DNA of 8,242 bases. Origin: a virus. Its lineage: Duplodnaviria; Heunggongvirae; Uroviricota; Caudoviricetes. The notes under the pieces are model-generated. The model searched no databases and was not told the DNA's origin. It saw only the letters and a list, made by a program, of their open reading frames with translations. A program made the position numbers and the translations under genes. The stretch lies in IMG/VR virus record IMGVR_UViG_2698536379_000012, one strand, 5' to 3'. How positions within the stretch are numbered: position 1 is the stretch's first letter; each line of letters starts with the position of its first letter. Shown here piece after piece: positions 2,230 through 4,163 of the stretch.

Positions 2230-3447
2230 ATGTCGATTAAACATTATGATGTTGTCAGGGCGGCGTCGCCGTCAGATCTTGCGGAAAAGCTGACACACAA
2301 ACTGAAAGAGGGCTGGCAGCCGTTTGGTAGTCCTGTGGCCATAACCCCTTATACCCTGATGCAGGCGATTGCCGCGGAGGGGGATGTGACCACGCCAGTG
2401 GTTGTGCCCGGCACGGGGGATGGTGGCTATCCGGGAGTGGTCACCACGGAGCCAGATTATTACTACGTTATTCCACTGGCCGGGCAGTCGAACGGCATGG
2501 CTTACGGTGAGGGGCTTCCTCTGCCGCAGACATATGACCGTCCTGACCCGCGTATAAAGCAACTGGCTCGTCGCAGCACAGTGACGCCGGATGGCGCTCC
2601 CTGTAAATATAACGACATTATTCCGGCAGACCACTGTCTGCATGATGTACAGGACATGAGCCGTCTTAATCATCCGAAAGCTGACCTGTCGAAAGGTCAG
2701 TACGGAACCGTGGGGCAGGGGCTGCATATTGCCAAAAAGCTGCTGCCGTTTATACCGGCGAATGCGGGTATTCTTCTGGTTCCGTGCTGCCGTGGTGGTT
2801 CAGCTTTCACCACCGGGGCAGATGGAACATACAGTGACGTGACCGGTGCCTCAGAGAGTTCTACCCGCTGGGGTGTGGGCAGGCCGCTGTATAAGGATCT
2901 CATCGGTCGTACAAAAGCCGCGCTGGCAAAGAACCCGAAAAATGTGCTGCTTGCCGTGGTGTGGATGCAGGGGGAATTTGACTTTGACGGAACGCCAGCA
3001 AATCACACAGCCCGTTTTACAGAAGTAGTGGAACAATATCGTACGGACCTTGCAGATATGGTGGGACAGTGCGCTGGTGGTTCTGCTGACGGTGTTCCCT
3101 GGATATGTGGAGACACAACTTATTTCTGGAAGCAGAAGAGCGAATCCACTTACCAGACGGTGTACGGCAGTTACAAAAACAAAACGGAAAAGAATATTCA
3201 CTTTGTGCCGTTCATGACCGATGAGAACGGAGCAAATGTCCCGACGAACAAACCGGAAGAAGACCCGGATATTCCGGCATCAGGATATTACGGTGCGGCC
3301 TCCCGGACGTCGGCAAACTGGACGTCAGCAGACCGTGCGAGCCATTTCAGCTCATGGGCACGCAGGGGGATTATTTCTGACCGTCTTGCCTCAGCGATTC
3401 TTCTCCATGCAGGACGGCTGAACTGGTGGGTGGGGAACAGGTTGTGA
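2230..3447 (+). CDS. nanS-p: nanS-p-like sialate O-acetylesterase, N-terminal segment (DUF1737-like head plus SASA/SGNH esterase domain); likely the front part of a frameshifted gene
   Basis: RBS GGGAGA 7 nt upstream of ATG 2230. The N-terminus MSIKHYDVVRAASPSDLAEKLTHKLKEGWQPFGSPVAI resembles the DUF1737 head of prophage NanS-p esterases. The IPLAGQSNGMAYGEG motif (about nt 2473-2517) is the SASA sialic-acid acetylesterase signature. The ORF ends at TGA 3445-3447 where a third domain would be expected. Confidence 0.7.
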   Translation: MSIKHYDVVRAASPSDLAEKLTHKLKEGWQPFGSPVAITPYTLMQAIAAEGDVTTPVVVPGTGDGGYPGVVTTEPDYYYVIPLAGQSNGMAYGEGLPLPQTYDRPDPRIKQLARRSTVTPDGAPCKYNDIIPADHCLHDVQDMSRLNHPKADLSKGQYGTVGQGLHIAKKLLPFIPANAGILLVPCCRGGSAFTTGADGTYSDVTGASESSTRWGVGRPLYKDLIGRTKAALAKNPKNVLLAVVWMQGEFDFDGTPANHTARFTEVVEQYRTDLADMVGQCAGGSADGVPWICGDTTYFWKQKSESTYQTVYGSYKNKTEKNIHFVPFMTDENGANVPTNKPEEDPDIPASGYYGAASRTSANWTSADRASHFSSWARRGIISDRLASAILLHAGRLNWWVGNRL

Positions 3448-4163
3448 TGCCGCCGGATGAGAAGCCGTCACCGGACACACCATCAACACCGTCAACGGAC
3501 GGGAAATCAGTGACAACGCTGCTTTATTACCGTGCAACAGAGTCAGGTGGTTTACTGAATCCGCAGGGATGGGGAGCTGAAGGAGGGCGTGCATTGGTAG
3601 TTGATGATGCAGGTGCTGCAGGAGGTAAGGCGCTGAGGTGGACCAAACAGACAGGAAGTTCCTCGTGGTTTATGCAGCATGATGCCGGTAATGGCGCAGA
3701 CCTGCTGGAGAAGGGCGGGCTTATCAGTTGTCGTTTTAAAGTTGATGGCACACTGACAGCTAATCAGTACGCACTGGCGCTGTACTGGCCGGTTTCTTCA
3801 CTGCCTCAGGGCGTCACACTGGAAGGTAATGCCGGTCATAACCTGCTGGCGTCGTTTTACGTACAGAGCGATGCCACAGACCTTAATGTGATGTACCACA
3901 AGGGAAATGCTGGTCAGAACACGAAGCTGGGGTCATTCGGCGCATTTGATAACGAATGGCATACGCTGGGCTTCCGTTTTGCCGGTAACAACAGTATTGA
4001 GGTGACGCCGGTCATTGATGGTAAGGACGGGACGCCGTTCATGCTGTCACAGTCACCGGTCGGCACGTTTACGGCAGACAAATTGCGCGTGACCGATATC
4101 ACTAGCGGTGCGACATATCCGGTGCTGATTGAAAGTATAACAGTGGAAGTGAATAACCCGTAA
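3426..4163 (+). CDS. nanS-p: nanS-p-like esterase, C-terminal segment (Pro/Ser/Thr linker plus C-terminal domain) in a different frame; probably continuous with 2230..3447 before a frameshift
   Basis: Frame 3 is open from 3381 (after TGA 3378-3380) to TAA 4161-4163. It begins with a linker PPDEKPSPDTPSTPSTDGKS and has no convincing independent RBS; the first ATG is at 3447 and the GTG at 3426 is an arbitrary start. The two segments total about 650 aa, the usual NanS-p length as I recall it. Confidence 0.6.
   Translation: MGGEQVVMPPDEKPSPDTPSTPSTDGKSVTTLLYYRATESGGLLNPQGWGAEGGRALVVDDAGAAGGKALRWTKQTGSSSWFMQHDAGNGADLLEKGGLISCRFKVDGTLTANQYALALYWPVSSLPQGVTLEGNAGHNLLASFYVQSDATDLNVMYHKGNAGQNTKLGSFGAFDNEWHTLGFRFAGNNSIEVTPVIDGKDGTPFMLSQSPVGTFTADKLRVTDITSGATYPVLIESITVEVNNP

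Follow-up and report, generated by a model that had tools for sequence, protein, structure and literature searches.

The NanS-p esterases are prophage paralogues of NanS, with several active copies in EDL933 and O104:H4, which enable the lysogen to use Neu5,9Ac2 for growth and to remove O-acetyl groups from mucin glycans (PMC8065619). A carbohydrate-binding role has been proposed for their C-terminal module, without experimental evidence according to a 2021 review (PMC8065619). One member of the family, gp84 of phage phi24B, is reported to decorate the capsid through its DUF1737 domain and, once the phage has been released, to undergo cleavage between its catalytic and C-terminal domains (2026 preprint, bioRxiv 10.64898/2026.04.10.717836). 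Autoproteolysis at this interdomain site is attributed to Franke et al. 2020, as cited in that preprint.

Here, we analyse a nanS-p region that is divided between two reading frames. The window, i.e. the whole stretch of DNA that was analysed, is 8,242 nt long and constitutes the entire E. coli draft contig CYAE01000058.1 (assembly GCA_001277435.1), the two sequences being identical. The original prediction had read positions 2230-4163 as one NanS-p-type sialate O-acetylesterase gene of about 650 aa, broken by a frameshift. This assignment is borne out by a DUF1737 head, a GQSN/SASA esterase domain and a C-terminal domain, which normally make up one protein of about 645 aa. We will argue that the region is a frameshifted Sp6-type nanS-p, in which a real, inherited slippage deletion has split a redundant prophage gene, and not an evolved two-gene system. 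We assign this reading a probability of about 0.85.

Locus and domain content of the two reading frames

The window covers late genes of an Sp6-like lambdoid prophage. At its 5' end, a rusA lacking its 5' part is followed by Q (330-1151), a TerB-like pseudogene, a DUF3927 ORF and an STnc100-family prophage sRNA element on the plus strand (1923-2089; Rfam RF02076, 99.6 bits, E 2.2e-21). The split nanS-p region then occupies 2230-4163 of the plus strand, and downstream of it come DUF1378, DUF826, the holin (4876), YdfR, the lysozyme (5491), an antirepressor and Rz (7018). A tRNA scan of the window found none. The position of nanS-p is typical, namely in a lambdoid late region after Q, at the stx position, and before the holin, endolysin and Rz genes, and the same synteny surrounds the gene in Sakai Sp6, EDL933 and BP-4795.

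From the synteny Q-(stx position)-nanS-p-S-R-Rz, taken together with the literature (PMC10462455), we infer that nanS-p would be reached by Q-dependent late transcription. A strong intrinsic-terminator-like hairpin with a T8 run lies on the plus strand at 2117-2145 (hairpin 2117-2135), 85 nt before the nanS-p start, so that transcription from upstream must read through it.

The closest complete genomes to the window are those of O55:H7 RM12579, DEC5D and TB182A, with 99.9% identity over the full 8.2 kb. Relative to RM12579, the sole differences over this length are a 4-bp deletion in nanS-p, a 31-bp duplication in rusA, and SNPs at 2670, 7450 and 8143. The rusA duplication is a tandem one at 120-150; it is private to the window contig and absent from a sister contig.

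The first frame, ORF1, is a truncated NanS-p of 405 aa in frame 1 of the plus strand (2230-3447), with its TGA stop at 3445-3447. Frame 3 has a TGA at 3378-3380 and is thus open from 3381, as had been stated in the original prediction, up to the stop at 4161-4163. Both frames are consequently open on the plus strand over the 67 nt from 3381 to 3447, where the tail of ORF1 overlaps the frame of ORF2. As called by gene finders, ORF2 runs on the plus strand from a GTG at 3426, corresponding to Val401 of the intact protein, to 4163 (245 aa, intact residues 401-645); from the ATG at 3447 it would comprise 238 aa (residues 408-645). ORF1 retains the native residues 1-396, followed by nine out-of-frame residues, LNWWVGNRL, and the TGA, and its predicted product ends in the junction peptide ...HAGRLNWWVGNRL.

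In terms of content, ORF1 consists of the DUF1737 capsid-binding head (PF08410, residues 4-50, E 1.9e-15), a linker, and a complete NanS-like SGNH/SASA esterase domain (PF03629, residues 83-275, E 1.4e-11). No SGNH block is missing from ORF1. The catalytic motifs located in it are the SGNH block I motif GQSN at 85-88 and the His-bearing RASH at 369-372, the latter being block IV of the family according to the block motifs as defined in PMC10462455. The frame-3 segment matches DUF6645 (PF20350, E 1.4e-71), with the C-terminal lectin-like jelly-roll domain complete, and ORF2 accordingly comprises the P/S/T-rich linker and this entire domain. Between them, the two pieces lack no more than 4-11 residues, all from the linker.

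The domain boundaries were taken from sequence matches to PDB entries, the AlphaFold2 model of the intact allele being unusable (10-sequence alignment; mean pLDDT 43, pTM 0.36). Residues 73-391 of the intact protein match NanS/YjhS (PDB 3PT5, chain residues 16-331 of 337, E 2.5e-119), and residues 429-644 match the C-terminal domain of a NanS-p (PDB 6YP6, E 9.5e-97). The break therefore comes just beyond the final helix of the NanS-like catalytic domain, ahead of the P/S/T-rich linker.

The conservation pattern leads to the same placement. In an alignment of ten homologues, the invariant columns are dense through H393-A394-G395-R396-A398, and the next one is S524; between A398 and S524, near-invariant positions are merely scattered. 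Since the invariant columns become sparse after R396/A398, the break falls where the densely conserved catalytic module ends and the P/S/T-rich linker PPDEKPSPDTPSTPST begins.

The deletion and its distribution

In O157:H7 Sakai, EDL933 and the O55:H7 strains, the orthologue is a single intact gene of 1938 bp, encoding 645 aa. In Sakai it is ECs_1527 of prophage Sp6, annotated as '9-O-acetyl-N-acetylneuraminic acid deacetylase', while in EDL933 and O55:H7 the corresponding protein is WP_000023170.1, a carbohydrate esterase of the SASA family. The split gene has 99.7% DNA identity to these orthologues and is 4 nt shorter (1934 bp). The single-gene orthologues, together with the complementary Pfam domains of the two segments, confirm that these are the halves of one nanS-p gene.

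The lesion itself can be located exactly by alignment to the intact genes. The DNA alignments with Sakai, EDL933 and RM12579 contain a single gap, CATGCA GGAC GGAC GG CTGAAC being reduced to CATGCA GGAC GG CTGAAC, which corresponds to the loss of one GGAC unit (4 bp) and converts CAGGACGGACGGCT into CAGGACGGCT at 3412-3417. The same three alignments place the junction on the plus strand at these positions, where only GGACGG is left of the GGACGGACGG found in intact alleles; the exact placement of the deleted bases is ambiguous within 3411/3412 to 3417/3418. The number of tetranucleotide repeat units is 2.5 in the intact alleles and 1.5 in the window. The resulting shift of the reading frame (-4) follows Arg396 and lies in the linker that joins the catalytic domain to the C-terminal one.

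The deletion is thus situated inside the interval 3381-3447 in which a frameshift had been predicted. The more specific suggestion of an error in the GGTGGGTGGGG run at 3424-3435 did not survive the comparison: the run is unchanged in all intact alleles aligned, which rules it out as the lesion.

Loss of a short direct-repeat unit is the classical signature of slipped-strand mispairing, and we infer that this process, acting during replication, was the cause of the deletion.

Six NCBI/ENA draft assemblies encode precisely this 405-aa product; four of them belong to one WGS series (CYAH, CYAE, CYGQ and CYCH) and two to another (AIAD and AIAH). The 245-aa ORF2 product is on record from 8 contigs, the sources of which include Logan assemblies of public runs. 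The deleted junction is seen at 6/6 loci, and the six split genes are mutually identical over 1934 bp. They also share a derived synonymous C>T change on the plus strand at 2670, which gives AAT instead of AAC at Asn147; it is missing from the intact alleles and accompanies the deletion in each of the six split ones.

Outside the gene, on the other hand, the six loci do differ, by 0-4 SNPs, by the length of one T-run, and, at one locus, by a mosaic upstream part with a different Q/rusA module. These differences indicate that the six assemblies represent separate isolates with one inherited haplotype, their monophyly being deduced from the shared haplotype.

Complete E. coli genomes provide the wider picture. 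This allele is carried by 315 of 5,426, and the deletion occurs in 0/315. The span around the repeat measures 105 nt in each of the 43 complete genomes that were sampled among the carriers of this allele, as compared to 101 nt in the window, and a search of the 5,426 genomes for either the deleted form or a form with three repeat units found neither. The mutation is thus genuine, rare and lineage-restricted, being inherited in a small group of closely related isolates, and the deletion event is recent.

Consequences of the split and rival explanations

The mechanism that we propose starts from the nanS-p of an Sp6-like lambdoid prophage, in which slipped-strand mispairing during replication would have removed one GGAC unit and turned GGAC GGAC GG into GGAC GG. 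Translation from the normal start then gives a 405-aa protein with DUF1737 and the whole esterase domain but with nine wrong residues at the C-terminus, and the lectin-like C-terminal domain is left behind in frame 3. ORF1 would be without whatever substrate targeting the carbohydrate-binding module gave.

By analogy with chromosomal NanS, which is a standalone esterase of just this domain, the ORF1 product probably still folds and de-O-acetylates free Neu5,9Ac2. Retained function of the truncated enzyme is made plausible also by the location of the genetic break, in the same interdomain region as the reported cleavage of gp84. ORF1 might, however, be destabilised by its aberrant tail of nine residues.

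At least one nanS-p-like place exists in 2,399 of 5,426 complete E. coli genomes, with 6 in the O55:H7 genomes and up to 15 in O157, and with several copies per genome the loss of one should cost little. Given a multi-copy family and a recent event, the change most likely represents a loss of fusion that is neutral or nearly so, and that would be a step toward gene decay. The label 'pseudogene', one of those offered in the original prediction, is a fair one by annotation standards.

The second piece may nevertheless be expressed to some extent. At 3445-3449 of the plus strand, the stop codon of ORF1 (3445-3447) overlaps an in-frame ATG of ORF2 (3447-3449, Met408 of the intact protein) in the sequence TGATG, and a G-rich, SD-like stretch, GGGGAACAGG, is found on the same strand at 3432-3441, i.e. 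6-15 nt before this ATG. The region from -20 to -3 of the ATG pairs with the 16S anti-SD sequence at -6.5 kcal/mol. For comparison, the corresponding energies of the annotated genes in the window range from +0.6 to -10.8 kcal/mol, most being between -3.0 and -10.8, and the start of nanS-p itself and that of the holin both have -7.4 kcal/mol. The earlier statement that the second segment lacks a convincing RBS is hence only half right, as the in-frame ATG at 3447 is preceded by an SD-like stretch within the energy range of the window's genes.

Termination-reinitiation is classically associated with a UGAUG overlap, and the layout of a coupled pair, with overlapping stop and start and an SD sequence within the upstream ORF, is indeed present here. 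Judging from these sequence elements, ORF2 may be made at a low level through termination-reinitiation at a chance TGATG. None of these elements is new: the intact gene already has the same ATG, the same SD-like stretch and the same TGA triplet, the last being out of frame there, and the arrangement is for this reason fortuitous. As to the product, the isolated C-terminal domain of a homologue has been crystallised alone (6YP6), which implies that this domain folds autonomously.

These observations bear directly on the possibility that the split gene is functional, with both ORFs expressed, ORF2 being coupled at TGATG, and a NanS-p made of two polypeptides. According to this scenario, a three-domain capsid-decoration esterase would have been converted accidentally into a DUF1737-esterase and a separate lectin-like product. 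Besides the SD-like pairing, which is comparable to that of real genes in the window, and the crystallised C-terminal domain, it can draw on the break lying in the interdomain linker with both domains complete, and on the cleavage between these domains reported for gp84/vb_24B_21 (bioRxiv 10.64898/2026.04.10.717836, citing Franke et al. 2020). It can further draw on proteins of 239-272 aa in which DUF6645 is the sole Pfam domain; the family as a whole is small (37 clusters at 50% identity out of 1.84 billion representatives) and also includes a DUF1737-DUF6645 architecture without SASA. However, with all elements of the TGATG site already in place in the intact gene, nothing has evolved for coupling; the allele is young and its six copies are identical, which gives no signal of selection; and it is rare, with 6-8 contigs as compared to hundreds of intact copies. 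The comparison with homologues is also unfavourable. The 120 best are either three-domain proteins of 645-654 aa or shorter entries mostly flagged as partial, and a natural two-gene layout, in which an intact homologue ends at the split and is followed by a separate downstream gene, was sought among them and is absent. We consider a functional two-polypeptide system to be improbable.

Another rival is a sequencing or assembly artefact, with the gene intact in the organism and the 4-bp gap an error; a sequencing error was among the options of the original prediction. The contig is a short draft one, and the private 31-bp duplication near its 5' end, missing from a sister contig, suggests that the assembly may have flaws. 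Against this, the same deletion is present in six assemblies of two WGS projects, the ORF2 product is found also in Logan assemblies, and the synonymous SNP 741 nt upstream accompanies the deletion in every case. The clean loss of a 4-nt unit outside a homopolymer is atypical as a short-read error, and a 10-nt repeat is far below the k-mer size of assemblers. An artefact is hence hard to sustain, and a systematic one common to two projects is very unlikely. The lowest probability, close to nil, is that of regulated recoding or phase variation, i.e. programmed -1 frameshifting in 3381-3447 or a GGAC contingency tract by which the C-terminal domain would be switched on and off. It is true that a -1 shift inside the 67-nt overlap would give back the native frame, and that the lesion lies within a tetranucleotide repeat. 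A scan of the whole ORF1 frame for -1 slippery sites found no X XXY YYZ heptamer, however, and the frameshift is not conserved among the diverged homologues (120 best). The repeat has only 2.5 units (1.5 here) and not the long, unit-variable tandem tract of a contingency locus, and the span is constant at 105 nt in the 43 sampled genomes, with the 101-nt form in 0/315.

With an inherited slippage deletion as the preferred explanation, the practical implications mainly concern annotation. The two deposited 'YjhS' CDSs are halves of one nanS-p and should be treated as a frameshifted Sp6-type allele; beyond this, the significance is little. For the small set of E. coli isolates whose prophage is closest to those of O55:H7, the allele could act as a marker of the lineage, and it represents a natural NanS-p without the C-terminal domain, useful for probing the role of the lectin-like module. 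Were the two-gene module true, it would be a gene-level copy of the proteolytic domain separation in phi24B gp84, and a natural experiment on the C-terminal carbohydrate-binding module in cis versus in trans.

Comparison with known systems

The closest relatives are the NanS-p proteins of EHEC, such as 933W Z1466/L0105, Sakai Sp6 ECs_1527 and phi24B vb_24B_21/gp84. The gene and the type of locus are the same, and the shared features comprise the DUF1737 head, the SGNH/SASA esterase with GQSN and RASH, the DUF6645 tail, and the position between Q/pR' and S-R-Rz. The difference is the 4-bp deletion, as a result of which the three domains are no longer on one polypeptide: the fusion of DUF6645 to the esterase, a feature of the family, is lost, and the domain now lies in frame 3.

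Chromosomal NanS (YjhS, 3PT5) resembles ORF1 in that the catalytic domains align over the whole length and in that neither protein has the C-terminal lectin domain. ORF1, on the other hand, keeps the phage DUF1737 head and carries the 9-residue aberrant tail, whereas chromosomal NanS presumably has its own N-terminal signal region.

The pair of ORFs can also be compared with translationally coupled pairs that have a UGAUG overlap, for example trpB-trpA. As in these, the stop of ORF1 and the in-frame AUG of ORF2 share one base and an SD-like stretch is located upstream, but the overlap is here an accident of the frameshift and the coupling is putative.

Finally, other disrupted nanS-p alleles are known, with independent inactivating or truncating lesions in the same family. 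Stx2a phages have a 461-aa variant and others that are interrupted by IS elements (PMC10462455), and O157 of the TW14359 type (TW14359/EC4115) has a rusA-nanS-p deletion. In phage 2B8 (NC_049952), the esterase is split by another frameshift, which lies within the catalytic domain around aa 292-334 and is mentioned also in bioRxiv 10.64898/2026.05.13.724894. The existence of several independent disrupted alleles indicates that the family tolerates such lesions. While the other alleles are broken by IS insertion, by a large deletion or by a frameshift in the catalytic domain, the present one has a 4-bp slippage in the interdomain linker that leaves both domains whole. We therefore regard it as a mutated NanS-p and not as a system of a new kind.

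The module upstream of the split nanS-p allele

We compared the region preceding the split nanS-p allele with the corresponding locus of contig L006 (CYAH01000057.1). There, positions 1-2300 hold a module that differs from that of the window, yet the same split allele follows. This module encodes an intact 121-aa RusA and a Q of 229 aa that is of the PF06323 type, as opposed to the 273-aa PF03589-type Q. The different RusA/Q module of L006 shows that the sequence preceding the shared allele has undergone mosaic recombination.

In the window, the rusA fragment (1-333) contains a 31-bp tandem duplication at 120-181, consisting of two copies of AAGCGCCGCCGTGACCTGGACAATATTCTGA, which shifts the frame and leads to a stop at 162-164. 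In the ancestral rusA sequence, the later duplicated 31-bp unit is flanked by a 9-bp direct repeat, AAGCGCCGC. The duplication is private to the window contig, and the sister contig L009 spans the site without it. It may reflect real slippage or an artefact close to the contig end.

Directly upstream of nanS-p there is an STnc100-family prophage sRNA (1923-2089; Rfam RF02076, 99.6 bits). Between it and nanS-p, at 2117-2145, lies a strong terminator-like hairpin that carries a T8 run. The T-run is one base shorter in L010, another of the compared loci. A 2026 preprint links STnc100 to the PasD sRNAs, which flank the sialic acid esterase gene.

Other disrupted alleles and DUF6645 architectures

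In O157:H7 TW14359 (L005, 1773-3303) the same nanS-p locus is inactivated differently from the window. A deletion in TW14359-, EC4115- and SS17-type O157:H7 fuses a truncated rusA with a nanS-p that is shortened at its N-terminal end and is annotated as a DUF6645 pseudogene. In phage 2B8 (L013, RefSeq NC_049952, 6095-8072), an independent frameshift near residues 292-334, within the catalytic region, divides the esterase into two CDSs, one annotated 'SASA family carbohydrate esterase' and the other 'Mobile element protein'.

Among the representative proteins retrieved with ORF2, P0136 and P0143 (294 and 440 aa) have DUF1737 joined straight to DUF6645. That they do so without an esterase domain suggests capsid-decoration proteins displaying only the lectin-like module.

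Rz/Rz1 and the TerB-like reading frame

Rz lies at 7018-7485, and nested in its +1 frame is an ORF (7238-7423) with a lipoprotein-like signal, whose Sakai counterpart is annotated 'lipoprotein precursor'. This ORF is the usual Rz1 o-spanin.

The TerB-like ORF at 1389-1751 has an in-frame stop (...GECEAS*KAKIEQ...), and for the matching locus in EDL933 and RM12579 the RefSeq annotation is a pseudogene interrupted by an internal stop. This ORF sits at the position where Stx phages have stx.
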